The notes beneath the pieces are model-generated. The model searched no databases. It was given only the letters and a program-made list of their open reading frames with translations, and had not been told where the DNA came from. Below, piece after piece: positions 30,565 through 50,900 of a stretch of 64,000 nucleotides of DNA. Each line of letters opens with the position of its first letter. Positions within the stretch are counted from its first letter, which is position 1. Source of the DNA: a virus; IMG/VR virus record IMGVR_UViG_3300002835_000047, positions 1 to 64,000 of that record. The stretch is one strand, 5' to 3'. Both the position numbers and the translations under genes were made by a program.

Positions 30565-30576
30565 AATTAATAAATT

Positions 30577-31245
30577 ATGGCAATTATAGCAGAAGTAATA
30601 TCTAGAATTAGAGGACAGGCAAAAGCATATAACCAAGATGCGTTTGTTACAGATAGATATATATATAGTCTTGTTCAAAAGTTTTCTCAAGTTTTAATGC
30701 GCCGGCAAGATAGCGCAAACAAACTAATGAAATTTAATTCAATATGGAAGTCTCTTCCGTATGTTGAACTAATAGAGGTTGATCGGATTGAGGCCCAATG
30801 TTCAGGTCTTAAAAGTGACTGTACATTTATGAGGACAAAGGAAGAACTTCCTACTATGATTGAGGGTTTTTGGGGACCACTTATTAGGAGTGTTTCTTCA
30901 ATTGATGGTTCACAAGTGTTGCAACCAATTCAACCTAGTATATACTTATCAATGGAAGGTACAACGTCATTTAGGTATAATAAGACAAAGTATTTTTGGT
31001 TTATTGATCACCATTTATATTTTCCAAATTTAGAATGGAATGCTGTAAAAATTGAAGCTGTTTTTGATTCTGATATATCTAATTGGCAGTGTGATAATAA
31101 GTGCGTTCCTCATTATGATCAAGACATTAATATTCCAGAATTTTTATTGGCTGAGGTTGAAGCTCAAGTTTTGAATATTATGACAAATACAATAAAGATT
31201 CCTTCTGATAATGCTGATAATAAAATTAATATACACAGATCATGA
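30577..31245 (+). CDS. Putative tail ring/tubular protein
   Basis: 222 aa with KYFWFIDHHLYFPN; synteny upstream of the muzzle gene. Confidence 0.7.
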   Translation: MAIIAEVISRIRGQAKAYNQDAFVTDRYIYSLVQKFSQVLMRRQDSANKLMKFNSIWKSLPYVELIEVDRIEAQCSGLKSDCTFMRTKEELPTMIEGFWGPLIRSVSSIDGSQVLQPIQPSIYLSMEGTTSFRYNKTKYFWFIDHHLYFPNLEWNAVKIEAVFDSDISNWQCDNKCVPHYDQDINIPEFLLAEVEAQVLNIMTNTIKIPSDNADNKINIHRS

Positions 31246-32129: not shown

Positions 32130-32132
32130 GAA

Positions 32133-35100
32133 ATGGCAAAACAACAGTCTACAAATTCATCCGGTGCTTATACTAACGCCTTTACAAAAGGCATGCTTAA
32201 GGATATAAGCGGATCTTTTGAACCAAATAGTAATTGGTCGCATGCTAGAAATGTAATTTTAAATTCTATTGATGGCGACTTTGGAACTATAGGTAATGAA
32301 CCTGCAACTTTAGCTTGTGGTGTAGTTCCCTATACTATTATTGGTTTTATTCACAAAAGAGCTGACCAGTGGTATGTTTTTTCAACTGATGACATTTCTT
32401 CAGAAATTGGTTTTTATGATGAGAGTACTTGTGCTTATACTACTATTGTAAATGCACCGTGTTTAAACTTTAACCGGAAGTATTTAATAACAGGAGCTGC
32501 AAAAGAAAATTTTGATTGCACTTGGCAAATTTATTTTGATGATTCCAATAATCCATCTAGAACACTAAATGTTGATAATATTCCTTGGGTTAAAAGAGAT
32601 GTTTCAATACCCGGGGATACTTGTAAGATTTATGAAGATACTACAGTTTTAGATTGTGAAAAATTAAGACTGGCTCCTTTACTAAACACTCCATGTTTAA
32701 CGCTAACTAAAGCAACTGATGGAGGACTACTTAGAAATGGTATGTACCAAGCGTTTATTGCGTACATGGATAATGATGTTGTTGTTACAGATTATATTGG
32801 AATTTCAAACATTCAGAGTTTATTTGATCATAATTCAAATTCTGGTTCTTTAAGTATTGAGTTAAAAAATTTAGATCAAAATTTTGATAATTACCAACTT
32901 GTAATTTTGTCAAACAATCAGCAACAGTTTGTAGCAAAAAAAGTTGGGAAATACAGTACTCAGCAATCTAAGGTTACAATTGACTTTATTGACCCAGCTT
33001 TAGAGTCTGTTCCTTTATCTTCACTTTTTATTAGAAAGCCTGCATATGAAAAGTCAGATGCAATGTATGTTGTAAATGACTATTTAATACGGAAAGGTCC
33101 TACAGAACAATTTGATTTTAATTATCAACCTTTAGCAAATAAAATTAAAGCTAACTGGGTTGTTGCTGAATATCCTGCTGATTATTATTACAATAGCGGT
33201 AATAAAACTTCATTTATGCGTGATGAAGTATATTCATTTTTTATAAGATGGATTTACAATACCGGTGAAAAAAGTAAGTCTTATCATATTCCAGGTAGGT
33301 ATCCAAAAGTAAATGGTACAAATCAGTATAATGAAGTTATTAATGAAACAGCTCAGGTTAGTTCTATAAATTCTATTAAGGGACCAAACTATAACTTTGA
33401 AATTTACGACACATCTACAGTTCTAACAGTTGCTGCAACTAACTTACCTGATGGTGGAAGAATTATTGGTTCTGGTGAAATGGGCTATTGGCAATCAACT
33501 GAAAGATACCCATCCACAAATCCTGAGATCTGGAATTCCACATATGTTAGTTCATCAGGTGTAAACATTGGTGGTACAACAAATACACAATTTGATTTGT
33601 GCGGTAAACCAATTAGGCATCACAAAATGCCCACGGAAGAAAGAAGTCCGGTTTTAAGATTATATGATGACACCACTGATTCAATAAGAATTTTGGGAGT
33701 TAAGTTTTCAGATATTGAACGTCCTAAATTTAATGATGGTACATATATTCCTAATATTATAGGTTATGAAATTTTAAGAGGTTCTAGAGAAGGGGCTAAA
33801 TCTATTTTAGCAAAGGGTGTATTTAGAAACATGCGCAAGTACACTATTCCTAATAGTACCGGTAATCTACAAGGTCTTTATCCAAACTATCCATATAATG
33901 ATTTAAGATCTGATATTTACTTTCATGATGGAACTAATGGGCAAGCTCCTGCGAAAAGAACAGACGGTTGTGATTCTTTAACTGATTCAATTAATAATTA
34001 CCAACCATTAAAGGGTTTTACAAAAAATGTTTTTACATTTCATTCTCCGGAATTAATGTTTAAAGATCTTTACTTAAATGCAAGTGAAGCTCGTTTATAT
34101 GGTGATCTAAGTGGTATAGCGCAAGGTACTTTTGTTAAGTCTGAAAAACACCCTCAGTTTAAATTGTTGAGGAACGTTGCTGCAGTTCTTGCTGGAATTT
34201 TAGGTATTGGTTATGCAGTTAATGCAATTAATGGATTTAGAAAGACAAAAATAAATTATGGGTATGCTGATAGTAGTGCTGAAGGTTTTACTTTTTCTGG
34301 TCCTGCTGGTAGCACTCCTGGTGTAAATTATTTACCCAATAAAGGAGCTCAAGCTGCAGCAATAGCCACTCAAGCAAACACTTATTTGTTAGGGTTAGTC
34401 GCAGATGATGGCCCGGCTCTTACTATTGCTCTCCCGTTGCTTGGCGGGAACAATGGTAGAAGTCTGCTTAATGCAACTCAGGCTGGTATTCAAGCTCAAA
34501 TAGGAACTATTCCAATGATGGTTGGTGGCAGCATGGATAAAGAATTTGAGATAAAGGATGAAGCTGGTGGCATACCTAATTCACTTCAACTTGCCCTTGG
34601 TTGGATAACAAGTAGACAAAAAATTGCAGAGGGTGCTCAGAAAATAATTGATGTTCTTTACAATTTTGTTAAGCCATCTGACTTTGCCTATAAATATAAT
34701 TCACATGCTGATATTTTTAAGTTTCAACCAACTAGTAATGGTGAGAGATATCGGGATGAAATTCTTGATCAAAATTATATAGGTTCTTCATTTCAACTTT
34801 TTGATGGTATGTATAAGATTAATAACTTGTATAGGCCAAAAACGGTTGCTATATCTATCAAAAATGAATTCAATACTCCCCTTATTACAGACAGATCCAG
34901 GTTTGTTATAGGTGGTGAAGAAAACAACGGTAGGGTTACAGAAACTGATTTTTATTTAAAAGCGCCTGAAGTAAATAGAGTATCTGATGTTTCAATGAGA
35001 TACGGCGCTTTAAAATTTAATTTCCAAAATCAATATGGTCAATTAGAAGGAATTAAACAATCCGTTATGCGTGGTTGTATTTATTTGACTAATACATCAT

Positions 35101-37577
35101 CAGATAAATTTTCAACTGACGAAATATTTGCCGGTGACACTTATGTTGGACGCTACACTGAAAAAGTTATCATGCCTATTTTTTCAGATTTCTTATTTGG
35201 TCAACCTGATGAATATACATATGATTATCTAAAACGTGTTAACATACCTTATCCTAGATTTTGGATAAATTCTCAAAAGTTTGACACCATGAACTTAGCA
35301 AATGAAATTGCTACGTTAGGTCTTGCTAATTCACAGAATGTTACTTTACCGAATGATCTTTTTTATTTAGATAGAGGTAGTAATAGTTGTGGCGGATTAA
35401 TAAACTTTTTTTTGAACGGAGATCCTAATCCGGCTTTTGCAATGAGGTATGCATATATGTACACTCATTGTAATGGAATTTTAGATTTTTTTGTTGAATC
35501 TGAAATTAATCTAGCTCAAAGAGATTGGGAAGAAATACCTTCTGGTAGGCATTATGATTCATATAGTTATAATGATGTTGATGATTTATTTGATGCATCT
35601 ATTATAAAAAAGGATAATGTTTTCAAGTATGATTATTCTTTAAGTGCTAGCAGATTCATAACTAATTTAACATCTTTTGGAGAAATACAATCTAGAGATT
35701 ATAATCCTGAAGTTGCTGAAAAGTGTTTTAGTTATTATCCTAGCCGTTTGATATATTCATTGCAAGCTCAAAATGAAATTAAGAAGGATTTTTGGCGAGT
35801 TTTTTTACCAAATAATTATAAAGACTTTAGCCAAATAACTACAATAAAACCAATTAATCAAACCGGCGCTATTATATTCTTTCCGTATAAGTCACCCCAG
35901 TTGTTTCAAGGTGTTGATGCATTACAAACAGATTTAGGTGTAAAACTTGTAATTGGTGATGGAGGTTTATTTTCACAACCTTTGCAAAATATAACCAATT
36001 CGGATTTGTCAAATGAATACGGTTCTTGTGAAAATGCAAGATCTGTTGTTAATACACCTTATGGTTTATTTTACATTTCACAGGAACAAGGTAAGATATT
36101 CATGTATCAAAATTCTTTAGTTGACATTTCAAACTATGGAATGATTACTTGGCTTTCTAAATACTTACCTTCAATTCTTAAGAGTCAATTCCCTGAAATT
36201 GAAGACACAGTATTATATGATAATCCAGTAATTGGGATTGGTTGTCAGTCTGTATATGATATCAATTATGATATTGTTTATTTCTCTAAGAAAGACTATA
36301 GTGTAAAACCTGAGTTTAGAGAAAATATGACGTTTAATCCATTGACTAATTTATTTAGTTACACATATGAATCTGGTATATCATTGAGTGTTTCAGTGGG
36401 TGATCCTCAGTTTTTTGATGATGTTTCTTGGACTATTTCTTTTAGTCCTAAATCTAAAGCCTGGGTTTCTTTTCATGATTGGTTTCCTGAGTTATCAATT
36501 CCAAGTACTAATCATTTTTTAACCACAAAAACAACTACATTAAAACAACCATATTGCCCACCAGGTTACACATATAATATTTCTACAAACAGTTGTGAAA
36601 AGATTATTAATCAATCTTCTCCAGCTATAGTTTCTGTTCAAGAATTACCAGCAACTATAGTTGGAAATAATTGCAGTTGCCCAACTGGTTACACGATAGT
36701 TTATCCTAATACAAGTTCAACTCCTATTAGATATACTATGCCAAATGGTTTATGTTCATCTTTAGAAGGTAAAAAACCAATTTGCAGAAAAGTCACTTGC
36801 AATTGTCCACCATCTCCTGTTTCTTGGGCAACAACTACTACTACCGGTGAGTGTGATAATCTATATTTAACTGGCCCTAATGGAGATCCAAATTATGTAA
36901 ATAGTAATCCTTTAATATGTAATTACTTTACTTTAGATAGTGTTGTTCCAAGTTTAACAGGTGGTACTATTTGGAGGCATAATTATCGTTGTGATCTTTA
37001 TTCTAATTACTATAATGTAAACTATCCTTGGGAAATTGAGTTTACAGAAACTACAGGGCAAACGGTTACAACATTAAGAAATGTTGAATATCAATTAGAA
37101 TCCTATGTATATAAAGGTGACTTGCACAATGGATGCGGTGATGACAGGTGGCATGATTTAGATTTTAATTTTGATGAAGCAATTATTTATAATACAGAGC
37201 AAGTTTCTGGTTTGTTAAAACTAGAACTTAATGCTAAAGAAAATCCTTATTTAAATTTAAACTATCCTTTAATTGGACCAAATGATATAAAAATACTTTA
37301 CACTAAAGAAGAGCAGAAGTATAGATTTAATCAATTTTGGGACATAACTAAGGATCGTGGTGAATTTACAAATGCTGAGGAGCCAATCTTTATTACAAAA
37401 TTAAATGGTTATATTAAAGAATTAAATGCCGTTAATTTAGATTATCAAAAGTCTGCAGATCAAAGAAAGAAATTTAGACATTACTACAATAAAATATTTT
37501 TAAGAAAAAATGTTTCGGGTAATAGAAAAATGCTATTGAAGGTATTTAATACTAAATTTTTAAATTCGCCTAGGTAA
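32133..37577 (+). CDS. Tail stabilisation/muzzle protein (P22 gp10-like, crAss-type)
   Basis: 1814 aa with the N-terminal FTKGMLKD...WSHARN and beta-propeller-like repeats, plus motifs GDGGLF, WTISFS..WVSFHDW and RKKFRHY. Confidence 0.8.
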   Translation: MAKQQSTNSSGAYTNAFTKGMLKDISGSFEPNSNWSHARNVILNSIDGDFGTIGNEPATLACGVVPYTIIGFIHKRADQWYVFSTDDISSEIGFYDESTCAYTTIVNAPCLNFNRKYLITGAAKENFDCTWQIYFDDSNNPSRTLNVDNIPWVKRDVSIPGDTCKIYEDTTVLDCEKLRLAPLLNTPCLTLTKATDGGLLRNGMYQAFIAYMDNDVVVTDYIGISNIQSLFDHNSNSGSLSIELKNLDQNFDNYQLVILSNNQQQFVAKKVGKYSTQQSKVTIDFIDPALESVPLSSLFIRKPAYEKSDAMYVVNDYLIRKGPTEQFDFNYQPLANKIKANWVVAEYPADYYYNSGNKTSFMRDEVYSFFIRWIYNTGEKSKSYHIPGRYPKVNGTNQYNEVINETAQVSSINSIKGPNYNFEIYDTSTVLTVAATNLPDGGRIIGSGEMGYWQSTERYPSTNPEIWNSTYVSSSGVNIGGTTNTQFDLCGKPIRHHKMPTEERSPVLRLYDDTTDSIRILGVKFSDIERPKFNDGTYIPNIIGYEILRGSREGAKSILAKGVFRNMRKYTIPNSTGNLQGLYPNYPYNDLRSDIYFHDGTNGQAPAKRTDGCDSLTDSINNYQPLKGFTKNVFTFHSPELMFKDLYLNASEARLYGDLSGIAQGTFVKSEKHPQFKLLRNVAAVLAGILGIGYAVNAINGFRKTKINYGYADSSAEGFTFSGPAGSTPGVNYLPNKGAQAAAIATQANTYLLGLVADDGPALTIALPLLGGNNGRSLLNATQAGIQAQIGTIPMMVGGSMDKEFEIKDEAGGIPNSLQLALGWITSRQKIAEGAQKIIDVLYNFVKPSDFAYKYNSHADIFKFQPTSNGERYRDEILDQNYIGSSFQLFDGMYKINNLYRPKTVAISIKNEFNTPLITDRSRFVIGGEENNGRVTETDFYLKAPEVNRVSDVSMRYGALKFNFQNQYGQLEGIKQSVMRGCIYLTNTSSDKFSTDEIFAGDTYVGRYTEKVIMPIFSDFLFGQPDEYTYDYLKRVNIPYPRFWINSQKFDTMNLANEIATLGLANSQNVTLPNDLFYLDRGSNSCGGLINFFLNGDPNPAFAMRYAYMYTHCNGILDFFVESEINLAQRDWEEIPSGRHYDSYSYNDVDDLFDASIIKKDNVFKYDYSLSASRFITNLTSFGEIQSRDYNPEVAEKCFSYYPSRLIYSLQAQNEIKKDFWRVFLPNNYKDFSQITTIKPINQTGAIIFFPYKSPQLFQGVDALQTDLGVKLVIGDGGLFSQPLQNITNSDLSNEYGSCENARSVVNTPYGLFYISQEQGKIFMYQNSLVDISNYGMITWLSKYLPSILKSQFPEIEDTVLYDNPVIGIGCQSVYDINYDIVYFSKKDYSVKPEFRENMTFNPLTNLFSYTYESGISLSVSVGDPQFFDDVSWTISFSPKSKAWVSFHDWFPELSIPSTNHFLTTKTTTLKQPYCPPGYTYNISTNSCEKIINQSSPAIVSVQELPATIVGNNCSCPTGYTIVYPNTSSTPIRYTMPNGLCSSLEGKKPICRKVTCNCPPSPVSWATTTTTGECDNLYLTGPNGDPNYVNSNPLICNYFTLDSVVPSLTGGTIWRHNYRCDLYSNYYNVNYPWEIEFTETTGQTVTTLRNVEYQLESYVYKGDLHNGCGDDRWHDLDFNFDEAIIYNTEQVSGLLKLELNAKENPYLNLNYPLIGPNDIKILYTKEEQKYRFNQFWDITKDRGEFTNAEEPIFITKLNGYIKELNAVNLDYQKSADQRKKFRHYYNKIFLRKNVSGNRKMLLKVFNTKFLNSPR

Positions 37578-39856
37578 TGAAAAAAAATTCACTTTTAAAT
37601 TTTTTATCTGATACTGGGTATAAACGTAATAGCCCGGATGTTAACCGGCCATTAAATGTTATCCCTTCTGGTAGAATTACAATGCAAGATGTTGACTTTC
37701 CTGTGAGGGGTGTTGATAACTTGGGTAATGAAATGTTTATGATGCCTGGGGGAGAGTATTTCTTTCCAGGCGATTATGTTGTAGAAACACCTATGATGCA
37801 ACGTGGAGGATTAACATTTCAACAGTATTACACACCTGCTGCTGAATCTACAGGTGCAAACTATACACCAACAATGACTGTGCAAGCTGCTGAAAGACTT
37901 AAAGCAATACGTGATGCTCAGGAGTTGGCTAGAAGAAAACAGGCAATACAAGCTAGTCAAGCAGCAGCTTCAAGATCTTTTAGAGAACGTTTGACACCAG
38001 AAAACTTAGCTCAAGAAACTGGTGCTACCGGTGATAAACTCAGATTCTTTCCAAATGACCCTGATAGTTTTATTGATGACTATCTAAACCCCTTAAAAAT
38101 GGTGGGAGATATGGCATCTGGTTTAGGGAGAATCCCGCTTAATGTAAAGCAAGGTAACTATGGTGCCGCAGCACTAGATGTTGCAATCCCTTTAACAATA
38201 GGAGCATTAGCAGGACTTGGCACAAAGAGTGCTGGACAGTTTGTAAACAACCTGGCAAATCCTCTGGCAGGTACTGGTCAGTTTTTGACAACAAAAACTC
38301 CTTTAAGAAATGTTTACAACTTAATTCCTGAAGGAACTTTTCCTGGATACTCAAAGTTGAGAAATGCTGATAAATCATACAGAGTTGCGGGCATGGATGC
38401 TTACGATGACTTTGTTGAAAGTGGAATACTTAGGTCTAATACACCTGATATGCCTGTAGGTGCCAGTTTAGAAGAAAGAATGATGGGGGCTCGTCCTACA
38501 GGGTTTCCTTCTTTTCAAAAAGGGTTTGCAGATTTAAGATATTTGCCAGATAATGGAGGTGTTGTTTTTGAAACAGGCTTGCCCACCTTTAAAAGAGGTG
38601 AAATAAACCCCGTTACCGGACAACGTATAAGAGGCAGACACTACGCACACAGGGTCATTGACCCAAACACAGGTGCTACTATGTCAAATATACCTGGAGA
38701 AAACATTTCTGTATATGAAAGTTTCCCACATTGGTTAAGAGGTTATAAAGAAATTCCTAAACCTGCATCTAGTGAAAGTGTTGGAAATATATTTTTTAAA
38801 AAAAAACCGCTTCCTGATTGGGTCATTAAACAAATGAGATATTTAAGTTTACCTGAATTAAACAATCCACAAGCTTCTGAAGTTTTAGAAAATTTTAGAA
38901 TAAGAATTGGTACACCAGAAGGAAAAAAAAGATTAAAAGAATTGGGGATTACAGATACTAAAGTTTTTGATAATTTAAAAATAATTGCAAATAAAGAAAC
39001 ATTAGGCGAATATTGGCTTAATAGAATTGCATTACATCCAGAATTACCTGAAGTTAGAAATGTTACTAGACATGAGATAGAACATGGTGTACAGGATGCT
39101 GTGCAGCAAGCAAGAATGAATAAGTTTAATCGTGATCATTATGATTATTTTAAATATTTGTTTAGTCCCAAAAAAGCAGCTGCAGCACACGCTAAAGCTT
39201 TAAAACCTACTTCAGATATAGACGATATATTAAGTGGTTTAGAGTTAAGAAAAACACCCCAAAAAGTTGATTGGAATACAGTTAAATCAGTAAGAGAAAC
39301 ACCAGAACCACATAGATTATTTGAATATATGTCTGACAAAAAAGGTGCAACAAACTATTTTGATTCAGGATCACAAGGAAAAGAAAAATCCGCTTTTCTT
39401 GCGGAAGTTCAACAATATATGATGGATCAAGGAACTATTCCAAAAACTTCATACATAGATATTACTCCAGAAATGGTTAGGAATACTTTTATAGATTCTA
39501 GGTTTGACACAGAAGGTGTGGGTAAAATTTTAAGACTGTTTAATATAATGAAACCCACACAAAATAATTATAAATTAATTTCTAAAGGATTAAATAAAAT
39601 GTTGAGTATAGCACCATATGCTGTACCAGCGGCAATGAGCGTAAAAGCATTACAAGAAACACCTCAATATCAAAAAGGTGGTCAGCAGGTTGGAACAGAT
39701 ATATTGGATAAATATAAAAGCTATATTATGGGTGATTATAAACCAGAAGAAGAAAAAGATTTGAAAAATACTTATGATAAATTAAATAGACACTATTATA
39801 AAAAGGCAAAAGAAACCGGTAAATCTGTGCCAAATTATATTATGTCTTTATTGTAG
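37577..39856 (+). CDS. Modular putative virion cargo protein (ART-like and HExxH modules)
   Basis: Conserved-looking N-terminus (VRGVDNLG...MMPGGEYFFPGDYVVETPM), QxGG motifs and HEIEH at 39071-39085; first gene after the muzzle. Confidence 0.7.
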   Translation: MKKNSLLNFLSDTGYKRNSPDVNRPLNVIPSGRITMQDVDFPVRGVDNLGNEMFMMPGGEYFFPGDYVVETPMMQRGGLTFQQYYTPAAESTGANYTPTMTVQAAERLKAIRDAQELARRKQAIQASQAAASRSFRERLTPENLAQETGATGDKLRFFPNDPDSFIDDYLNPLKMVGDMASGLGRIPLNVKQGNYGAAALDVAIPLTIGALAGLGTKSAGQFVNNLANPLAGTGQFLTTKTPLRNVYNLIPEGTFPGYSKLRNADKSYRVAGMDAYDDFVESGILRSNTPDMPVGASLEERMMGARPTGFPSFQKGFADLRYLPDNGGVVFETGLPTFKRGEINPVTGQRIRGRHYAHRVIDPNTGATMSNIPGENISVYESFPHWLRGYKEIPKPASSESVGNIFFKKKPLPDWVIKQMRYLSLPELNNPQASEVLENFRIRIGTPEGKKRLKELGITDTKVFDNLKIIANKETLGEYWLNRIALHPELPEVRNVTRHEIEHGVQDAVQQARMNKFNRDHYDYFKYLFSPKKAAAAHAKALKPTSDIDDILSGLELRKTPQKVDWNTVKSVRETPEPHRLFEYMSDKKGATNYFDSGSQGKEKSAFLAEVQQYMMDQGTIPKTSYIDITPEMVRNTFIDSRFDTEGVGKILRLFNIMKPTQNNYKLISKGLNKMLSIAPYAVPAAMSVKALQETPQYQKGGQQVGTDILDKYKSYIMGDYKPEEEKDLKNTYDKLNRHYYKKAKETGKSVPNYIMSLL

Positions 39857-39907
39857 ATAATGCTGACTCAAACCTTATTAATATTATAAATTACACGTAT
39901 TTGTTTG

Positions 39908-39917
39908 TATATTAGTA
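39908..39917 (+). promoter_or_regulatory. Possible promoter core TATATTAGTA
   Basis: Resembles the recurring core, but has no TTTG at the expected spacing. Confidence 0.3.
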
Positions 39918-39946
39918 TTAACCGCTCTTTTAAATAAAGTATAAAT

Positions 39947-42379
39947 ATGATTGTTGATCCTTTTAGTTATTATAATAATTTGTATTCTCAGAGTGGTACT
40001 TTGAAAAAAAAATACCAGGAAGGTGGTTCTAATGGGTATGAATCTGAAGATTCTTTAAAAAGTCAGGTGTCAGAAATGATTGAATCTGGTGAATCACCAA
40101 AAACTGTTGCTGCATATCTTTCTCAAATTGGTTTAAGCGAATCAGAGATTAAGGATATGTTTTCTGAATACGGCTATTCAGATAGTGACTTAGAAGAGCT
40201 TTTTAATTCAGAGGAAGAAACTGATGATTTAGAAGAAAGTGATGAGTCAGAAGAAACTAAAGAAGATGAATCAGATTCTGATTATTCAGAAGATTCTTCC
40301 GGTTCTGATGTTTCGTTTGGTTTATTTGGTAATGATCTTCCTGAAGCTCAGTATGGTAATGGAGCAAATCCATTGACCATAGATCAATTTATGAATTTTG
40401 TTAATGGTCAAGATGGGTATGTGCAAAATCCAATTGCGGATTATTTACCAATGGATTTAGCATCAAAAAGTAATATTGCAGGTGCGGCGTTTGCTTTAGC
40501 TAATAGTGCTGCAGGTTTATTTAGCGGAAAAACAGATCCAGCAACCGGTTTAAAGCAAGGTTTTTTTAGAGATTTAAAAGTCAAAAGAGAAAGACAAAAG
40601 GAAATTGCACCTTATTATTATGATTATAAAGTGAATATAAACGCGGGTGATACAAATCAATATGCCGCAGATATTAATGATTTATATAGTGCTGCTAAAA
40701 ACAAAGGTCCGCTTAGAACCAAAGATGAATATATTGCAGATGAATTGCAATATTCAAGAATAGCCCCTGGTGCTAAGCCAGATACATATAATTTTATGTA
40801 TCGTAATAGACCAATAAATGAGAATCTATACAATGATGCACAAAGAAAAAAACTAAACCAATTTATAGAAAATAGCATTCCAGCATCAGAACCACTTATT
40901 AATGTACCTGAATACAGTTTACCTAAAGCTCAAATTGGAGGTTTGGGCGCACCACTAGGACTTAATTGGTCACCTAGGTTTGTAAGATCTAGTGAATCAA
41001 ATTCAAATGATGAGTTTGAAGATTCTGTAGAAAAAAGAATTTATATAGAGGACCCTAGAAAAATAAATGCTACAACTGGTAAAAAAATAAATCCCAATAA
41101 AGATTTGTTTAGTGGTGAATATGATCTAACTGTTATTAATGATCTTTTAAAGAGATCAAAGTTAGACGGTCTTAGTAGAGAAGATGCTTATAATTTATTA
41201 GCAATGGGATTGCAAGAAACAAATCTTGGTAAAACAGATTCTAACATTGGACATGTACGTCAAGGTACTAAAGAAGAAACTGATTATATTGCTGGTTTTG
41301 CAAAAGCTTACCGGGATAAAATGCAATATGCGGATAGATTGAAGATTAAAGATCCAGCGCTTAGGCTACAGGTTTATAATGGTTTAGGTATGGTTTATCC
41401 GGATACAGAAAAGAAATACCATACTTTTGAAATGAAAAATGTGTATGGTGTACCTGTACCTAAATCTGGTATAAACATGCGTAAAAATCCTTTATATGGA
41501 AAAAGAATTATTGATCTAAGGGATAATGTTTTGATGAAGAACAAAGAATTAAAAAGTATTGTAGATCAATATTACAGTCCTAAAATGCAAACAGGTGGTC
41601 AACCTGTTACATTTGATGAATGGGTTAATAGTGCCCCAAATGCCATGGAGCGCATGTTTAGAAAAAACGATCAAGTGGGTTATAATAATTATGTAAATGA
41701 TTTAACTAAAACTTTGAATACACCTGAAGTTGATACAAATCAAACCAGCTTTGTGCAAAACTTAGGACCTTTTCCTGAGGAGCTTATGGTTGATACAGCG
41801 CCTAATGCTAAAATGCTTACGCCTATAGATGTAAAGGATAAAGCTATTAATCCTAGTTTTATGCCTAGTCTTCCGTTTAAACCAGTTCCAAAACCTGAAC
41901 AAGAAATGCTTCCGATGCCTTCTTCAAAGCCTGTAGGAGAGTTTAAACCAAGCCCACTTTTACCCGTGGATAGCCCTAAAGTAAAAATAACAAATAAAGC
42001 TGAGGGTGATTTTAATAGATTTATGGATAGTCGTTTTATGCAGGGTTATGGCAATTTAAGTAATTTTGCTGTTAATGCCGCTGACTTTGCAAATGAAATC
42101 TTTAAAGATAAAAAAAGAAAGAATGCGGAAGGACGGTTATATGATATGACAATGGCAGATAACTATTACAGTTACAATGCTAATCCCATGAATAAAAAAG
42201 GAACTTGGGATGTTAATACAGGTTTACAGGAGCAAAATAATTATACAAACTATCAAATGTTTCAAGAGGGTGGAATGTATAAAGGAAGTAATACTAATCA
42301 ATATGCTGAGATTTTAGATTTAGATTCTGACTCAATAGCTGAATTGATTTCATTGGGGGCTAACATTGAAATACTATAA
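39947..42379 (+). CDS. Modular putative virion cargo protein with a lytic transglycosylase-like domain
   Basis: Five QxG(G) motifs, an acidic tract, and LAMGLQETNLG...LQVYNGLG...YGKRI of the lysozyme-like fold. Confidence 0.7.
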   Translation: MIVDPFSYYNNLYSQSGTLKKKYQEGGSNGYESEDSLKSQVSEMIESGESPKTVAAYLSQIGLSESEIKDMFSEYGYSDSDLEELFNSEEETDDLEESDESEETKEDESDSDYSEDSSGSDVSFGLFGNDLPEAQYGNGANPLTIDQFMNFVNGQDGYVQNPIADYLPMDLASKSNIAGAAFALANSAAGLFSGKTDPATGLKQGFFRDLKVKRERQKEIAPYYYDYKVNINAGDTNQYAADINDLYSAAKNKGPLRTKDEYIADELQYSRIAPGAKPDTYNFMYRNRPINENLYNDAQRKKLNQFIENSIPASEPLINVPEYSLPKAQIGGLGAPLGLNWSPRFVRSSESNSNDEFEDSVEKRIYIEDPRKINATTGKKINPNKDLFSGEYDLTVINDLLKRSKLDGLSREDAYNLLAMGLQETNLGKTDSNIGHVRQGTKEETDYIAGFAKAYRDKMQYADRLKIKDPALRLQVYNGLGMVYPDTEKKYHTFEMKNVYGVPVPKSGINMRKNPLYGKRIIDLRDNVLMKNKELKSIVDQYYSPKMQTGGQPVTFDEWVNSAPNAMERMFRKNDQVGYNNYVNDLTKTLNTPEVDTNQTSFVQNLGPFPEELMVDTAPNAKMLTPIDVKDKAINPSFMPSLPFKPVPKPEQEMLPMPSSKPVGEFKPSPLLPVDSPKVKITNKAEGDFNRFMDSRFMQGYGNLSNFAVNAADFANEIFKDKKRKNAEGRLYDMTMADNYYSYNANPMNKKGTWDVNTGLQEQNNYTNYQMFQEGGMYKGSNTNQYAEILDLDSDSIAELISLGANIEIL

Positions 42380-42381
42380 AC

Positions 42382-44697
42382 ATGGCAAAAGTAAAAATTT
42401 TAAATTTACCTGAGGGGATTACAATTAAAAATGGTAAAGTTCTGAAAATGCGTGATGGCGGTAATATAACCGGCGATCAATCTAATTATGGTTTAGTTAC
42501 ATACCCTAAATTTCCAGGAAGTATTAATAATGAAGCGTTTAATATCAGGCATAGCTTAAACGCAGTACCTAGAAATCAAGCAAATTTGGAAGCTGAAGGT
42601 GGTGAAACTGTTCTGACAGATTTGGATAATGACGGCTTGTTTGGTCTTTATGATATTAAAGGACCAAGACATTCATCTGGTGGTGTTCCTTTAAATCTTC
42701 CAGAACAATCATTTATATTTTCAGATACCCAAAGTATGAAACTAGGCGGTAGTGATTTAAAACAATTTGATATCAATAGTAGAAAAAAGATTACACCAGC
42801 TCAGGTTTCCAAACGTTATGATCTAAATAAATACTATGGAAAAATTAAAGATGAGTTTGCAGATGAAATACAAGTTAGAAGTGCCGAACTAATGATGGAT
42901 AAAAATAAAAAAACTTTATCTAAATTGGCTTTTGTTCAAGAGGCAAAAAAGAATTTTTCAGATGGTGTTCCTGTTATTTCTCATCCATACCTTATATCAC
43001 AAGGTATTGATCCAATTGAATTTACAGCAAGAGTAGAGGAAATATCTAATGCTAAAGCTTTAGGTAAAGCTGTTAGTGGTATGTCTGAACAGCAGTTGGT
43101 TAATCTAATGATGTTGCAAAACATGATTGCTGAGTCTAATAATCAAAGTACTTTTCAGGAACCGGCTCAAGTTGGCTTTGATGAAAGTTTTGTTCAACAG
43201 CCAATGGCAAGATATGGATTTGAATTTACTCCTGGTTTAGATTTATATCAAAAGAAAGGTGAAGTTAAAAATAAAGCATTTGATCAAAATGCATTAGACT
43301 ATCTTAAAAGTTTAGGTATAAATTTTGATCTTGCAGGCACAAACTTAGAATTTGAAAATATACAGTCTGAATCTAAAAATAAAAAAGGTAGGTTTGGTTC
43401 TGCTTCTGAAAATGAGGAAAAATTTAAAAGTGCTTGGGCAGGTATTTATCCTGATCTAGATGCACTTATTAAATCTTTAGATACTTACACACCTGGTAAG
43501 AATGAATCATATAAAAACCCTGAAGTTGTGAAATTTCAAAAATGGTTTGATGAAGTTTATGTTCCTAAGGAGGTTGATAGAATTAACACGTCTGTAAAAA
43601 ATTCTGGGAGACCTGAGCTTACTGATGAAGAAAAAAATAAACTTAGAACTGATTTGTCATCTAGAATAGGATTCAATCCTAATGCAAAAGGTAAAGATTA
43701 TGATGGTAAGTTTGGAACGTTTAGTTCTGCAGTTAGACCTTTTAATTATAAAATAGAGCCTTTAACTCAAAGAGAAGCAGTTACTCAATCTACAAATACT
43801 CCTCAAAAGGTAAAAACAATTACACCTGCAAATCCAGCTTTGCCTGGAAATAGGCCAAGTCCTCAATGGTGGTTGCAAGATTTACTTCAGATGAATAGTA
43901 TTGCCGGAAGAAACAGAGATATGTTTTTCCCGTTTCAACCTAATGTCCCAGATGTTGATTTGGGATATGTTTTAGAAGATCCTACAAGAGCCATTGCTGC
44001 TATCAATGAGAATGTTGGTCAGATTGGTGAGGCTTATGGCGCTTTTGCTGGTCCTCAATCTTTATCAGCAAGAATGTCCCAAACTCAAGGTAAAGCTGCT
44101 GAATTAATTGCAAATGAGATTGGTAGAGTTAACCAAAGAAACACGTCTGTTATTAATCAAGGTTTGGCTAGAAAAGCCCAATTTGATTTGTATGCTGGTA
44201 GAGAAAGAAGAGATAGACTTACAAAGGAGTATGATGATACACAGACTGTATTACAAAAATACATGGATGAAAAGAACTTTGACCGAGAACAGTATAATAT
44301 GGCTTTGTCAAATGCTATTACTAACAGAGCTAATACATACAACTTAAATTCCCTTCAAGATTATTTTCAAATTGATCCTACTAGCGGAGGTGTTATTGGT
44401 CAATTTAGTTCTAAAGCTTTTGAACCGGTTCCGCCTTCAGACATGAGTGATCAAATGATTCAGTCTTACGTGAATCTTGCTAAAGATTTAAAAGCTGGAG
44501 GTATTGAACCAACAGCAGATTTAGTAAATAGTATAATGGGTATTAAACAACAGACATTACCACAAGAAACTTATGCTCAAAGAGCATTTAGGAGTATGCC
44601 TCAAGGTTATGGTTTTGACTACAGACAATCTCAAACTTACCCAAGTCCGTATGCAACTCCGTTTAATCCAGGTTCAACTTTACCTGAAGGATACTAA
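42382..44697 (+). CDS. Putative virion cargo/ejection protein
   Basis: NLEAEGGETV...GPRHSSGGVP...FIFSD motif, recalled from crAss-like cargo proteins; synteny upstream of the vRNAP. Confidence 0.7.
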   Translation: MAKVKILNLPEGITIKNGKVLKMRDGGNITGDQSNYGLVTYPKFPGSINNEAFNIRHSLNAVPRNQANLEAEGGETVLTDLDNDGLFGLYDIKGPRHSSGGVPLNLPEQSFIFSDTQSMKLGGSDLKQFDINSRKKITPAQVSKRYDLNKYYGKIKDEFADEIQVRSAELMMDKNKKTLSKLAFVQEAKKNFSDGVPVISHPYLISQGIDPIEFTARVEEISNAKALGKAVSGMSEQQLVNLMMLQNMIAESNNQSTFQEPAQVGFDESFVQQPMARYGFEFTPGLDLYQKKGEVKNKAFDQNALDYLKSLGINFDLAGTNLEFENIQSESKNKKGRFGSASENEEKFKSAWAGIYPDLDALIKSLDTYTPGKNESYKNPEVVKFQKWFDEVYVPKEVDRINTSVKNSGRPELTDEEKNKLRTDLSSRIGFNPNAKGKDYDGKFGTFSSAVRPFNYKIEPLTQREAVTQSTNTPQKVKTITPANPALPGNRPSPQWWLQDLLQMNSIAGRNRDMFFPFQPNVPDVDLGYVLEDPTRAIAAINENVGQIGEAYGAFAGPQSLSARMSQTQGKAAELIANEIGRVNQRNTSVINQGLARKAQFDLYAGRERRDRLTKEYDDTQTVLQKYMDEKNFDREQYNMALSNAITNRANTYNLNSLQDYFQIDPTSGGVIGQFSSKAFEPVPPSDMSDQMIQSYVNLAKDLKAGGIEPTADLVNSIMGIKQQTLPQETYAQRAFRSMPQGYGFDYRQSQTYPSPYATPFNPGSTLPEGY

Positions 44698-44769
44698 ATG
44701 TAATTGATAAACTTAAAAAGTTTATTGATTTAATTTTTAAAACTAAAAAAATTTTTGTAATTTAGAGAT

Positions 44770-47700
44770 ATGGCAACTTATACACAGGGAAACCAACCTT
44801 ATTTACCCAATTGGCAGCCTTTTACACCGGACTATAAATTTTTGTCTGATGTTTTAGATACAAAAACTAACAGGTATAATACAAATTATAAAGAGTTAAA
44901 TGATTTGTATGGTAAGGTTGTTTATTCAGAATTGAGTCGTCAAGACACTAATGAAATGAGAGATCAATTTACAAACACTTTAGGTAAACAACTAGAGCTA
45001 GTTTCAGGTATGGATCTCTCTGTTGCTCAGAACGTTGACTATGCTAAAAAGTTGTTTAAGCCTTTCTATGATGAAAAGATTATTGTAAAAGATATGCTCT
45101 ATACAAAAAAGTATAGAGATGATATGCAATATGCAAATCAGCTTCAACAATCACCAGATCAGCAAATGAGAGAACTATACTGGACAACCGGTGTAGAAGC
45201 TTTGAATTATCAAATGCAAGATTTTAAAAATGCTTCTGCAGACGAAGCTTTGGGAATGTCACTTCCTCAGTATGTTGCAGATGCCGATCTAGAACAAAAA
45301 GCATTAGATTATTTAAAAAAGCAAGGTTTTGATGTGACAATGGATAGTATATCTCCGGATGGTGCTTTTATTGTAAAAGATAGAAATGGTAATTTAATTA
45401 CGGAACAAGCATATAGGATGGCTAGTAGAGCGCTTTTAGATGATCCCATTGTACAACAAGCTTATTATACAGATGCCTATGTAAAGTCAAGAAAGTTTGC
45501 AGACTCAGGTATTCAGACCGGTAATTTTAAATCAGTGAGTGAAGGTCAAAATGCTTGGGCTAGTGAAGTCATTAATGTTTATGAAAAAAATCTAGCCATT
45601 AGATCATTAAATGAAAAAGCAGATTTGAGTAAACTTCAGGATATAAATGTCAATTGGGAAAATTACATTAAAAATTATGGTATTATTCCTGGTTCAACCG
45701 AAGAGCAAGAATTAAATGTTGTACAAGATGAATTAACGTCAAAGTTAATGGCTTACCAGCAAACGCAAAGTATTTTGCAAAATGCTGGTACTATGGATAC
45801 TAAAACTACAAAAGGACTTTTAAATAAAGCTTATAGTTTGATAATGGGTTATAATATGCAGGATGATCTTTCCGCAGGTGTTGTAGCTTTTTCAAATATT
45901 AACAAAAGTAGAGAACTTAAAGTAAACGACTATTATAAGCAAAAGCTTGATCACCAACATGATTTTGCAAAAATTCAACAGCAGCATACAAATGCTATGA
46001 CGGAAGAAGCGCAAAAGCAGAGGAATAGAATTGATTTAGAAAAATTAAAAGGTACAATTGGTGGATCTGACTTTATAAATAGTATATTAGGTGGAGGCAT
46101 GGATGCTTCAGGTGCTGTATATAATGAAATGGGTACTGAATCTTCTGCTATAGATACTGAAACAGGTTTGGCAATTGACCCTAAAAAATATGATTATGTT
46201 AATGGTCAACAAAATAAGATCCTTAATTATCATCAGGATGCACTTAATGAAAACATCCAATTTGGATTAGAAGCTTTAGAAAAGTTTTATCCATCAAAAA
46301 ATGGTAATAATCAATATTCACTTAACTTTGAAAATACAGGAATTACTACTACCAAAGTGGGATCTTTACCAGAATTAAGGCAGTATCTACAAGATCCTCG
46401 CAATAAAACTATTGCTGAAGGATTTATATATAAAATGCATGCTTTAATGAAAGATCCGGATTTGGCAGTTAAGACAAATCCAAATTTTGTTAAAGAAAAC
46501 AGTGGCGCTAATTATCAAGAATTACAAACTAGATTTGATGTCTCTATGGGTCGTTTGACTGCTGTAGATAATATACAAACCCAATTTATGGGTACAGTAA
46601 GTGATAATTTTGATAAAGCAATTCAAACAGATTTAACATCTGAAACTAAATCTGTGCGTGAAGATATAGCTGCCGGTGCACTTAAAATTATTCAGCCGTC
46701 TCAAAATGGAACATCCAGAATAATCTCAGAGCAAGAATTTATTGCTGACTTTATTCAGAAGGCAAAATCTAAAGGTCCACAAAATAATAAATATTATTAT
46801 TACGCTTCACCTGCAGCTTATACTAGAGCTTCTATAGGAACACTTCCTCCAGGGGGAGTAAGTGCGCAGGACTTAGCTATGAGTTCTAGTAGAAGACCTA
46901 AGACGGATGGTTTTATATTTAATGAAAATTTAGCTGTGGCAAATGCAGTTAAGTCTTACAAAAGACAAAAGGATATTATGAATGCTACCCTTAGTGGTGT
47001 ACTTAATACCGAAGCTGAAAAAGGTGGCAAAGGAAGGATCTTTCAAAGTTTTGACGCTGGCTCATTTATGAGAGGTGTACCAAAAGATCAAATGACTGCT
47101 GCTGATGCTCTTAAAAATCCGTCCTATCCTTCGTTCTTTGATCCAACAACAATTGGTAAAGATCCATTGTCTCAAAGGAATTTTGCTTTTTTGGTTGGAC
47201 AGGTTAAGAAAACACCGTCTCAAGATTTAACGTTCTATGCTGGTGATATTGGTAAAGATGATGTTAGAACTGAATCAAGTAACGCTAAGGCTAAGCAAGT
47301 ATTTGATCAATGGTTGTTAAGTGTTTCTTCTTTTTCAAATGCTAAAGCAAGTAAGACAAATATACCAAAAGCTAATATTACATATAATCCTGTATATGGT
47401 GCAAATGATGCGGATAATTTGGGAAAAACTAAAGCGGCATATGTGATAACTTTTGATACAGATTGGTTACAGTCTTTGCAAGGAAGCACTAATAAACCTG
47501 GTTTAATTGGCGCAATTGAACTTGAATCATTTAAAACAATAACTATATCTTTTCCTCAGGATAAAGACGTTAGTGACAGAAGTTTTAAAGATTTTAATTT
47601 TTCTAATGTGATTTATGATGTAGAGTATTCACCTGAAAAGCAATATGTAAAAAATATTGATTCCGGAGGTAGAGTAAGAGTTTATAAAAACGCAAAAGAT

Positions 47701-47913
47701 GAATTGATTTTGGAGACTCAACCCACCATATATAATATTAAAACGGGGAATATGGAGCCATTGCAAGTTCAAACATTTCCTATAGGGCAAATTGCAAGTG
47801 GAAGTCCTATTGAACAAATTGATTTTATAGTGCAACAAAAAATCAATCAGCTTAATATTATAGCTCAAAATAATAACAAAAATCAGTTGGCAAATAAAAA
47901 ATCAAAACAATAA
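44770..47913 (+). CDS. Putative virion cargo/ejection protein
   Basis: 1047 aa, helical, N-terminus QPFTPDYKFL; directly upstream of the vRNAP polyprotein. Confidence 0.7.
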   Translation: MATYTQGNQPYLPNWQPFTPDYKFLSDVLDTKTNRYNTNYKELNDLYGKVVYSELSRQDTNEMRDQFTNTLGKQLELVSGMDLSVAQNVDYAKKLFKPFYDEKIIVKDMLYTKKYRDDMQYANQLQQSPDQQMRELYWTTGVEALNYQMQDFKNASADEALGMSLPQYVADADLEQKALDYLKKQGFDVTMDSISPDGAFIVKDRNGNLITEQAYRMASRALLDDPIVQQAYYTDAYVKSRKFADSGIQTGNFKSVSEGQNAWASEVINVYEKNLAIRSLNEKADLSKLQDINVNWENYIKNYGIIPGSTEEQELNVVQDELTSKLMAYQQTQSILQNAGTMDTKTTKGLLNKAYSLIMGYNMQDDLSAGVVAFSNINKSRELKVNDYYKQKLDHQHDFAKIQQQHTNAMTEEAQKQRNRIDLEKLKGTIGGSDFINSILGGGMDASGAVYNEMGTESSAIDTETGLAIDPKKYDYVNGQQNKILNYHQDALNENIQFGLEALEKFYPSKNGNNQYSLNFENTGITTTKVGSLPELRQYLQDPRNKTIAEGFIYKMHALMKDPDLAVKTNPNFVKENSGANYQELQTRFDVSMGRLTAVDNIQTQFMGTVSDNFDKAIQTDLTSETKSVREDIAAGALKIIQPSQNGTSRIISEQEFIADFIQKAKSKGPQNNKYYYYASPAAYTRASIGTLPPGGVSAQDLAMSSSRRPKTDGFIFNENLAVANAVKSYKRQKDIMNATLSGVLNTEAEKGGKGRIFQSFDAGSFMRGVPKDQMTAADALKNPSYPSFFDPTTIGKDPLSQRNFAFLVGQVKKTPSQDLTFYAGDIGKDDVRTESSNAKAKQVFDQWLLSVSSFSNAKASKTNIPKANITYNPVYGANDADNLGKTKAAYVITFDTDWLQSLQGSTNKPGLIGAIELESFKTITISFPQDKDVSDRSFKDFNFSNVIYDVEYSPEKQYVKNIDSGGRVRVYKNAKDELILETQPTIYNIKTGNMEPLQVQTFPIGQIASGSPIEQIDFIVQQKINQLNIIAQNNNKNQLANKKSKQ

Positions 47914-47924: not shown

Positions 47925-50900
47925 ATGCTAAATGCTAATACAAACGAAAGACTAATGTCGGAAGGTGGTTTGCCACAAACAAATCCTCAAATTCCAGATA
48001 GTAGTAAATTTGAGTTTCAATCTGTATATGATTTTTTTTCACCACCAGATACTCCGGAATTTAATCAAATTATGGATCCTGAGTATGAAAATATGCTTAG
48101 GCAACATGCACAACAAATTAATTCCTATGCTCCTGCTGCTATTGGTAATTTAAATACACCAACACCAACATTATCTTCAGAAACGTATAACCCCACAAAG
48201 CAAAGAACCGGATACAATTTATCTACTCCGGATGGTATACATGCGTTACTAAATGATTTTTCAGGAGTAATTAAGAGTGACAAACCGGTTATAGCAAATC
48301 CAATTGCAGCTGGTATTAGAGAAAGTAATTTTGATAGATACTATAAACATCCTAAATTTTCAAAGTTAGGCTGGCATCCTTACGCTGACAATGAATCTTT
48401 TTACAATGCTAATTCTTCTTGGTGGGATGATTTTGGAAGAATGAGTACTCAGTTCGGTAATCTTGCTAGCACAGGGTTTGTTTCATCATATCGTTCTATT
48501 GGTGATTTGTTTGATTCAGATTCATATTTTTCAGGTACTGATATGGAATCAGCATCAGAATTTTCTGATGCAATGCGAATTGGGAATAGTACACGAGGTG
48601 GTGTTGCTGGTTTTGCCAATAATTTAGCACTTCAGTTTGGATATACCGCTGGTATAATTGGGTCTATTGCGGTTGAAGAACTTGCCCTTAGTGCTGGGGC
48701 AGCACTTCAAGGATATATGAATCCTTTAGCAGATGCTGCTCTTGCAGGTAGAACTGCGTTGAATATGGGTAGATTAGGTAGAAGTATAGCACAATCTTTT
48801 GATGTTACAAGGTTTGCCGGTGCTACAAGAAATATGTATAATACATTAAGGTCTGTAGACGCGGCAAAAGATTTCTATTCTTTTGCTAAAACTGGTGGTA
48901 GAATTGCAGGTCAAATTTTTGCACCAGAAACTTACAGGGCAATAAAGACCTTAAACAGTACTGCAAATGGAGCGCAAAATCTTACAAACATGGCCAAAGT
49001 TTCAAAAACTTTTGGTGGTTTTTATAGGGATTTGAGATCTTTGAACTTAGCGCTTTCTGAATCAAAGATGGAAGGTGGTATGGTTTATGCTCAGCAGTTG
49101 GCAAATAATTATGATTATTATTCTGAAAAAAACAACGGTACCCCAGTCACTGAAGAGCAAATGGGTTTGATCACAGAAAATGCATCTAGAGCTGCATACT
49201 GGACTACACTTCAAAATGCGCCAACAATATTCTTTTCAAATCAATTGCTTTTAGGAAACGCTTTTGGAGCATACAATAAATCATTAAGTAGAATACTAAA
49301 TGATAATGTTAGTGGTTTGGCCGGTAGAGTCATAAGAGCAAAGGGTATCACTGAAGCTGGTAAAGCTGTGACTCGTCCATTTATAGATGCAGGTACAGGT
49401 TTAAAGGGTCTTTATAATACAGTTAAAGCTGCTGGAGTAAGGGGTAGTGTACAAATGGGTGCGCATGCTTCACTTAGATATTTTGCTGCTAATTTATCTG
49501 AAGGTATCCAAGAATTAACCCAAGAGGCAATTGCTCATGGTACAAAAGATTACCATCTTGAAATACTTAAAGATCCTGCATCTGGTGGAAAAGATTTATT
49601 GTCTGCAACAATTGCTTCAGCGGTTGGTTCTCAATTTAATTCCCAGGGATTTGAAACTTTCATGTCCGGATTTTTAATGGGTGGTCTTGCACAAGGACCA
49701 CAAAAATTACTTTTTCAAGGATTACCTAGTTTGTATCAACGTACTTTTGAAAAAGAAAAGTTTGAGGAATACAAAAAAAATAAAGAAACTTATATTAATA
49801 ACTTAGTTAATTCTTTAAATGATGCTTACGAGATCACAGCAAATGATCCAATGAGCTCAATTTTTGATACAAACAAAGTCAATCTTGTTTCTCAAAAACA
49901 AGCAAGTGATAATATACTGCAATCAATATTTGATGATTCAGAATTTGATTTTGTAGATGCTAAAGATTTTTCAAAATTTCAGTCTATTTACACAGTTCTT
50001 TCTAGTGGTAAAGCATCTGACTTTAAAGCTCAGTTCAGAGATTATTTAAAGATGACCAATGAGGAATTGGCTCAAATTTTTCCGGCTAGCAAAAAAGATA
50101 TAAAATCAGGAAAGCTTGCATCTAGAATGCAAGATATGATCAATAAAATTGATCAGCTTGAAGATTCATTTAATGAAAATAAAAATAAATTTCAGAATCC
50201 GTTTAATTCATCTATTTACAGAAAAGGTACTAGAGAGTATAATGAGGAAAGAATAAAAGAAATGTCTTTTGAGCATGCTAGATATCTTTACATGTTTACT
50301 GAAGATGGTTTTAAAAGAGCTTTGGAAAGATCTAAACTACTTTATGATGACTTAGCATCTGATCCAATTGTTGGAAAAATGGCAGCTAGTGATATTACAG
50401 TTTTGTTAGATCAAAACTCACTGGCTAAAGAAATTAAAATGCTCCTCAGTGAAATTTCTGTTTTAGATCCAAAGGAGAACAAAGAAATTATTGAAGCAAA
50501 AACAAATAAACTTAAAGGTCTTGATGCCGTGTTTAATGTTTTATATGCTAAAGAAAACTTAAATGCTAAAGGTAATTTTGATAAACGTAAAATAAATAAG
50601 TTACGCAAAGCTTTTGAAACTTATGTTCAATTGCTAGCAAAATCAAATGGTACTTTTGCGGATCAAAATAAAATAAAAGAAGCGCTTAAAAAAATTATAG
50701 ACTATAAAGATCTTTCAGAAAGAGCAAATGCTTATAACAAATCTATTGAGTACATGAATAACCCAGATAGATTTGATGAAATCAGATTAAGGGCTTACGA
50801 ATTTTATAAAAGTATTTTTAGAAATAGAGCACAGGTTTTTAAAGAGTCACTTAAAAATTATATTTCTAAATCTGAAATAAACCAATTTTTGAATGAGCTT

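Follow-up and report, generated by a model that had tools for sequence, protein, structure and literature searches.

Few phages are as abundant as the crassviruses, and how they select, pack and eject megadaltons of cargo protein is, to our knowledge, not known. Bacteroides phage crAss001 packs the proteins of its cargo slot, which holds C1 and C2 (gp45 and gp46; PF25725 crAss_CARG1); gp45 binds the portal, ring and muzzle proteins through short segments, and one cargo chain appears to span the portal and the tail uncut (Bayfield et al. 2023, PMC10172136). Another described group, the polyvalent proteins of phages and conjugative elements (Iyer, Burroughs, Anand, de Souza, Aravind 2017; PMC5512222), has several unrelated enzymatic domains per chain, including an ADP-ribosyltransferase (ART) and a zincin metallopeptidase, in variable architectures, and is predicted to be delivered to the host together with the DNA. 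Here we compare with these two kinds of proteins the products of three adjacent genes (P0001, P0002 and P0003) in a stretch of viral DNA, termed the window below, which comprises the first 64 kb of the 117,886-bp record IMGVR_UViG_3300002835_000047 (G+C content about 33%). A short, Gly-Gly-centred peptide, the tag, recurs in these proteins; it is specific to the cargo genes, lies in linkers, is conserved, and coincides with the boundaries of cassettes. Our tentative reading is that the products of the three genes, which follow the muzzle gene, are modular cargo ('polyvalent') proteins of the virion, with an uncut docking or hinge tag marking their termini and joints.

The genes P0001 (37577-39856, 759 amino acids), P0002 (39947-42379, 810 amino acids) and P0003 (42382-44697, 771 amino acids) lie on the plus strand, as do all tags and modules located below. 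According to Pfam matches and synteny, they occupy the same slot as C1 and C2 of crAss001 (PMC10172136), that is, after the muzzle gene and before the giant RNA polymerase-associated genes. As in crAss001, the proteins are large and partly disordered, and P0014, P0056 and P0062, which share modules with P0001 and P0002, carry the CARG1 domain. There were also differences. The proteins gp45-gp50 of crAss001 lack the tag, and Pfam searches with P0001-P0003 and their sub-regions yielded no family, not even PF25725 CARG1; moreover, the proteins described here carry ART-like, zincin and lysozyme-like cassettes that are exchanged between close relatives. The likeness to the polyvalent proteins (PMC5512222) consists in the combination of at least two unrelated enzymatic domains in one chain, for P0001 an ART-like domain and a zincin with a HEIEH motif (both assigned with modest fold scores), and in the extensive variation of architecture among the homologues. 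For the polyvalent proteins, processing by the zincin was predicted, but no junction motif was named, nor does that paper (PMC5512222) use the words 'linker', 'glycine' or 'crAss'; the conserved Gly-Gly tag at the joints seems to be the new element. The first-pass annotation, which was made from the sequence alone, had regarded the locus as an undescribed system of polymorphic cargo. This was overstated, because the proteins fit both the crassvirus virion cargo (PMC10172136) and the modular polyvalent proteins, for which processing by zincins was predicted (PMC5512222), so that the idea of polymorphic cargo is not new. The junction tag itself seems to be undescribed in print, and a literature search on the tag motif and on proteolysis of Crassvirales cargo returned nothing relevant. 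What the window adds is a cassette swap resolved to the base, a signature of duplicated tags, the lack of proline depletion after the tag, and the contrast between phage phi4:1, which has the tag, and phi14:2 and crAss001, which do not. Judging from synteny and from the proteomics of phi4:1, P0001-P0003 are probably packaged in the particle.

All ten peptides that had been listed initially as copies of one motif translate as written, at the coordinates assigned to them, but they are not equally well supported. Six conform to the strict pattern [MYFA]-Q-x-G-G, and these are confined to two adjacent genes. In P0001, MQRGG (37796-37810, residues 74-78) is located at the end of a beta domain and the start of a disordered linker, and YQKGG (39668-39682, residues 698-702) in another disordered linker, at the left edge of the conserved C-terminal tail module. 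In P0002, YQEGG (40013-40027, residues 23-27) is replaced by FQQGG or MQxGG in homologues; AQIGG (40928-40942, residues 328-332), which belongs to an LPKAQxG(G) subtype, has a large indel directly upstream in homologues; MQTGG (41585-41599, residues 547-551) immediately follows the lysozyme-like module; and FQEGG (42260-42274, residues 772-776) just precedes an invariant C-terminal peptide. Two degenerate copies are supported by orthologues: LPEAQYGNG (40346-40363, P0002 residues 134-139) is kept as LPEA[QKR]YGNG in 57%-identical homologues and appears as EQFGG in P0142, and MRDGG (42448-42462, P0003 residues 23-27) corresponds to MQKGG at the same column of the orthologue from the metagenomic relative L005. 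MARYG (43204-43218, P0003) is doubtful, being only loosely kept as MGKYG in L005, and YQKKG (43246-43260, P0003) is not conserved there and hence is probably no copy of the tag. A further copy of the lysine type, MKLGG (42736-42750, P0003 residues 119-123), is conserved in L005 and was absent from the initial list. P0003 has only degenerate or K-type tags.

A scan of 20,680 residues of open reading frames (ORFs) in the window showed no strict site in the ~19,000 residues outside P0001 and P0002; 0.11 sites were expected from per-protein shuffles, and none of 20,000 shuffles reached the observed six, in agreement with the proposed enrichment in cargo proteins over the other ORFs. The single Q-x-G-G of the 5112-residue giant protein encoded downstream, PEVQRGG, is AEVEKGK in L005 and, as it is not conserved, probably arose by chance; it was rejected as a cut mark in the giant protein. 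The codons of the tag differ between the copies in the genome. Therefore, conservation acts at the protein level, and a DNA-level recombination signal was rejected as an explanation.

The tag is also found beyond this genome. Among P0001 homologues (n = 120), Q.GG was observed 211 times versus 38 expected, and among the 145 cluster representatives of the P0002 search set 261 times versus 49 expected, with only 22 occurrences of the reverse GG.Q; the corresponding numbers for lysine in this set were 238 K.GG versus 62 GG.K. Across four other independent loci, including that of phi4:1, the cargo-slot genes contain 27 tags in 13,266 residues, whereas the ring, muzzle and giant genes contain two in 16,272 (Fisher p = 8e-8). 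Phage phi4:1 is an isolate from Cellulophaga, and two of its proteins that adjoin a muzzle-like protein, gp040 (895 amino acids) with seven tags and gp041 with two, are virion proteins verified by tandem mass spectrometry (MS/MS) according to the GenBank notes; the first module of P0001, module A, together with its tag matches gp040, and gp040/gp041 have this module and the tags in common with P0001. A logo built on 574 dereplicated instances gave the core P-x-[Y/M/F/A/K]-[Q/K]-x-G-G-x-[L/I/V]. On the left arm, L/I/Y at -4 is followed by proline at -3 (enriched 3.3-fold), Y/M/F/K at -1 (1 bit) and then Q or K; on the right arm, L/I/V at +5 (0.5 bit) is followed by tyrosine at +8 and often by a second Gly-Gly at +10/+11, eight residues on. 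Two subtypes recur, namely ...YGG-x-LPKAQ-x-G(G) and, at the extreme C-terminus, [KQ]-x-GG-WLDKY, and in 69 of 279 homologues a conserved tag with WLDKY lies within 12 residues of the C-terminus. Could the tag recur by chance, or through the composition of proteins rich in Gly and Gln? Such an effect would fit the copy in the giant protein as well as YQKKG and MARYG, which are conserved weakly or not at all, but the shuffles never reach the observed count, two independent homologue sets each show an oriented, five-fold enrichment, and the sites are positionally conserved in orthologues. Taken together, the shuffles and the orthologue alignments refute a chance origin, for which we see next to no probability.

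The relation of the tags to protein domains was clearest for P0001, for which an AlphaFold model based on 70 sequences had a mean predicted local distance difference test (pLDDT) score of 78. In this model, a small beta domain (module A, residues 23-75), a helical region (100-250), two further domains (264-398 and 411-680) and a C-terminal helical tail (708-750) are predicted with confidence, and the two low-confidence linkers, 76-99 and 680-707, hold both tags. The Z scores obtained with VIA-align were modest though consistent: residues 264-398 resemble ART folds (Z 4.7-4.8), and residues 411-680 resemble zincins, namely anthrax lethal factor (Z 6.2) as well as M13 peptidases and Pro-Pro endopeptidases (PPEP; Z 5-5.6). 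The zinc-binding motif HEIEH (39071-39085) lies inside the zincin module. Hence, the ART-like and HExxH modules are indeed located between the first two tags, at residues 74 and 698, as had been noted from the sequence. A Foldseek search of the model against the PDB gave no match at E <= 0.001, and no PDB chain matched P0001 or P0003 at the sequence level.

The architectures of the homologues of P0001 (n = 173) are shuffled, and its modules A to D occur in other proteins in any order and any combination. The Pfam domains found in the homologues also differ and comprise ART-PolyVal, SET, SLT, Phage_lysozyme2, M15, LysM-YkuD, GNAT and DUF5872. Homology breakpoints coincide with tags in more than 100 homologues. 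For P0001, BLAST breakpoints cluster at residues 70-89 and at about 690-719, that is, at both tags: 39 high-scoring segment pairs end at residues 70-89, those of six homologues start at residue 74, and those of the tail module start at residues 676-698, mostly 695-698, in seven homologues. Duplicated tags flank insertions, for example in P0028, in which two M-QRGG copies surround a 60-residue insert, and module C and the tail module D each retain a copy of the tag when other modules sit between them. Indels also cluster beside the tags. The most direct case was a natural swap in the close relative L001, in which blastn alignments match window positions 30322-38319 at 98.7% and 39666-47309 at 99.4% identity, with no match between. 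The swappable cassette of the window (38320-39665), which encodes the ART-like and zincin modules, is replaced in L001 by an unrelated 1.7-kb cassette with ART-PolyVal (PF18760 in P0023), so that the zincin is absent while all tags are kept. At the right breakpoint homology resumes at 39666, with the YQKGG codons beginning 2 nt further on; the left breakpoint does not coincide with a tag. As each cassette carries its own tag, in-frame insertion, deletion or exchange at the tags is possible. These results bear out three points of the first-pass annotation, namely that the motif stands at domain boundaries, that domains are swapped at the motif in related loci, and that the domains are interchangeable, for which 'polymorphic cargo' is a fair description.

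A similar organization was observed for P0002, for which the AlphaFold model, based on four sequences, was unusable (pLDDT 33). From the N-terminus, a leader of 22 residues is followed by a tag, a helical and acidic region, the degenerate tag, a conserved N-module, a tag, a lysozyme/SLT-like module and a tag, and then by a Pro-rich region, a conserved module, the last tag and the invariant C-terminal peptide. The lysozyme/SLT-like module (41009-41584, residues 355-546) thus lies between AQIGG and MQTGG, as had been proposed for a transglycosylase-like module; its designation as SLT is at the level of a lead (Atlas score 0.91; no Pfam match). A search with the whole of P0002 gave 179 matches at E <= 1e-30, and among the matches listed nearly all concerned this module, whose position varies freely among proteins 226-2423 amino acids long. 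In 47 of 135 diverse proteins, [QK]xGG follows within 10 residues of the end of the module. P0002 orthologues of the P0140 type and of the L005 type are devoid of the module. A tblastn search with P0002 and a megablast search with window positions 37000-45000, both against 50,697 phage records, found no match.

For P0003, residues 39-144 aligned weakly to the CARG1 region of P0014 (BLASTP E 0.84), and residues 70-150 are weakly similar to the portal-binding domain of crAss cargo-1. The motif F-N-E-G-G-S-H-E of that domain is present in P0014 and at residue 444 of crAss001 gp45; in residues 1-140 of P0003 (42382-42800), G-P-R-H-S-S-G-G-V-P-L has a likeness to it that is below significance.

What the tag does has to be weighed among three readings, of which we tentatively place uncut docking or hinging first, cleavage, which we regard as rather doubtful, second, and a passive linker or recombination joint, which is less likely still, third. 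Among virion proteins with a tag that is cut, the internal proteins of T4 (IPI-III, Alt) have a capsid targeting sequence that the gp21 prohead protease cleaves at LxE, and phiKZ-like phages use S/A/G-x-E. As is proposed here for P0001 and P0002, a short shared peptide after short N-terminal leaders labels the proteins to be packaged and injected; unlike the T4 tags, which are cut by a known prohead protease, the tag described here is also internal and C-terminal, often in tandem, and Gly-Gly-centred, and no prohead protease or other peptidase family was found among the 20 head and tail ORFs searched. Gly-Gly at P2-P1 is used by the adenovirus protease adenain ((M/I/L)XGG↓X), by pS273R of African swine fever virus (ASFV), by Ulp/SENP proteases such as Ulp1 acting on SUMO (QTGG, QIGG), and by C39 peptidases, and the adenovirus and ASFV sites serve the processing of virion core polyproteins. 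The tag resembles them in the order hydrophobic residue, one to two residues, Gly-Gly, and AQIGG and MQTGG end like SUMO/Smt3. It differs in that, compared with adenain or C39 sites, an extra position separates its hydrophobic residue from Gly-Gly, Gln and Lys interchange, the residues after Gly-Gly are constrained and proline is tolerated there; a clan CE peptidase (Peptidase_C48, PF02902) and a homologue of the crAss001 gp66 'aspartyl protease' were sought in the genome without a match. If the tag were a proteolytic site, the cargo genes would encode true polyproteins, cut at or next to Gly-Gly by a phage, host or cargo zincin protease during particle maturation or after injection, which would release leaders and individual effector modules. 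The beads-on-a-string layout, with tags exactly at module joints and after N-terminal leaders of 22-75 residues, fits such processing. In some single-module homologues, leaders of 10-14 residues end in Gly-Gly. Small basic ORFs of this genome (described below), with three to four tags in 86-99 residues, would give short basic peptides, and a zincin fold is at hand in P0001, as is a second HExxH in the giant protein, next to the prediction of zincin processing by Iyer et al. (PMC5512222). However, the zincin of P0001 is swapped out in the 99%-identical L001 with every tag kept, and the ORF between the portal and capsid genes looks like a scaffold. At a cleavage site, constraint should be confined to the subsites and proline avoided at P1', which is a soft criterion; here, constraint extends from -4 to +8, and proline directly after Gly-Gly accounts for 4.7% of the 574 tags versus a background of 6.0% and is not depleted. 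The extreme C-terminal GGWLDKY ends are conserved although cutting would discard them, and in crAss001 a single cargo chain appears to span the portal and the tail uncut. The functions suggested in the first-pass annotation, a head-packaging tag or a processing site for a phage protease, are both candidates; no maturation protease was found in these searches, and the nearby HExxH belongs to a replaceable cassette. We likewise consider it unlikely, slightly more so than cleavage in general, that an unrecognised Gly-Gly-specific protease, viral or host, cuts the tag and that injected effectors are matured and deployed from true polyproteins. If so, this phage clade would handle its effectors as adenovirus and ASFV handle their core proteins, and the small basic ORFs with their many tags would encode the precursors of short peptides that associate with DNA.

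The tag might also have no binding or cleavage partner and simply be a favoured inter-domain linker, kept mainly for in-frame recombination of cassettes; its Gly-Gly turn would keep folding units apart and make it easier for the chain to thread through the tail. The location of tags in disordered linkers, the indels clustering beside them, the cassette breakpoint 2 nt from a tag and the duplicated tags around insertions are all in line with this. Nevertheless, we judge it improbable, and the least probable of the three readings: because the tag codons differ, DNA homology between tags amounts to a few bases at most, the left breakpoint of the L001 swap lies off the tag, ordinary linkers keep no oriented pattern of the kind seen here (261 Q.GG versus 22 GG.Q), position-specific hydrophobic, Pro and Gln/Lys residues are kept across otherwise unrelated proteins, and tags are kept at extreme termini, where no linker is needed. 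Docking without cutting is put first because the zincin cassette is absent from the tag-keeping L001, no protease was found in the searches described above, the constraint is two-sided and the C-terminal ends are conserved; single-module proteins also often retain a tag at a terminus, and the bound cargo segments of crAss001 are a precedent. On this tentative reading, the tag docks and stays uncut. It would be a Gly-Gly hinge, flexible and anchored by hydrophobic residues on either arm, several copies of which would attach the cargo chain non-covalently to repeated sites inside the particle. Such sites are proposed in the capsid interior or on the portal, ring or muzzle proteins, and docking would serve loading and an ordered, module-by-module ejection. 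Several observations weigh against this reading. AlphaFold gives the tag no defined structure, and any receptor for it is hypothetical. The proteins gp45-gp50 of crAss001 and g065-g071 of phi14:2 have essentially no tag; therefore the tag belongs to one clade and not to crassviruses generally, and, since these are the crassviruses with structural or biochemical data, the docking precedent is an analogy only. The polyprotein-like layout, with short N-terminal leaders ending in Gly-Gly and the order leader-tag-module-tag-module-tag-tail, fits proteolysis equally well, and a protease of a new kind, or one supplied by the host, may have escaped a search for recognisable protease genes. We set aside a Gln-Lys cross-link of the transglutaminase type, joining Q-type to K-type tags, as unsupported and hard to square with ejection through the tail.

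A short, portable, cargo-specific peptide at cassette boundaries is a concrete handle on the choice, packing and ejection of cargo. It is amenable to mutation, to fusion with a reporter, to searches of cryo-EM maps and to searches for termini in virion proteomes, and a cultivable carrier exists in Cellulophaga baltica with phage phi4:1 or phi17:2. Looking for the tag is also a simple way to locate, in the genome sequences of metagenomic phages, the cassettes of injected effectors (ART, zincin, cell-wall hydrolases, SET, GNAT) and the sites at which they are exchanged.

The window comes from an uncultured crAss-like phage and shows the order muzzle, cargo-slot genes, giant and gp49 homologue. 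In its late region, genes for the large terminase, the portal protein, an acidic helical ORF, the major capsid protein and the muzzle protein are followed by four large genes and the gene for the 5112-residue giant. The muzzle gene (32133-37577, plus strand, 1814 amino acids; PF25731 crAss_MUZ, E 1.6e-25) served as the synteny anchor and is free of tags, as is the fourth gene of the cargo slot (44770-47913, plus strand, 1047 amino acids). The giant gene (47925-63263, plus strand) occupies the slot of the virion RNA polymerase-associated proteins, which are separate in crAss001 and represented here by one ORF; the versions of relatives have 4222-5148 residues. The giant protein contains DUF7831 near its C-terminus and a HEAFH motif, the second HExxH, at residue 2141, and a direct phmmer comparison with gp47 and gp50 of crAss001 gave no match. 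A match to crAss001 gp49 follows at 63267-68918, partly past the end of the window. The same order, from ring proteins to muzzle, several cargo genes and giant, was observed in the metagenomic relatives L002, L004 and L005. Further HExxH ORFs lie outside the window on the minus strand of G000, at 68953-69336 (127 amino acids; no Pfam match) and at 91689-92864 (391 amino acids).

The cargo proteins of L002 (10001-10120) and L004 (9893-10010) open with a 36-residue leader with four cysteines (CTCGW...CHECG), which looks like a zinc ribbon and is followed by the tag MKNGGWLD. In L004 the leader had been missed by the gene caller because it overlaps the upstream gene. The apparent start of a protein exactly at the tag (MKNGGWLD...) is therefore a gene-call artefact in L004, and the case of L005 is ambiguous.

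Small, very basic ORFs with three to four tag-like x-G-G units each are found outside the window at G000 73486-73785 (99 amino acids; YKQMGG, KMQMGG, KKQIGG) and 74309-74569 (86 amino acids; YKVGG, AQVGG, LKTGG), with counterparts at L007 10487-10783 and 11310-11567; Pfam searches with the two G000 ORFs found no family. The family of the first ORF extends over nine viral contigs and has the core PSDNKGLGKLPxxVRNKMGY, followed by Lys-rich M-x-Y-GG repeats. In some contigs this core stands at the end of proteins of 330-470 amino acids.

Two ORFs upstream of the cargo genes complete the description of the window. Between the portal and major capsid genes, positions 11181-12443 encode an acidic, helix-rich protein of 420 amino acids with a coiled-coil appearance and no family match; position and composition indicate that it is probably the scaffolding protein, and gp065 of phi4:1, which has the same position, lacks an annotation as an MS/MS-verified structural protein. 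The ORF at 1135-2052 encodes an ordinary endolysin with PG_binding_1 and Amidase_2 domains.

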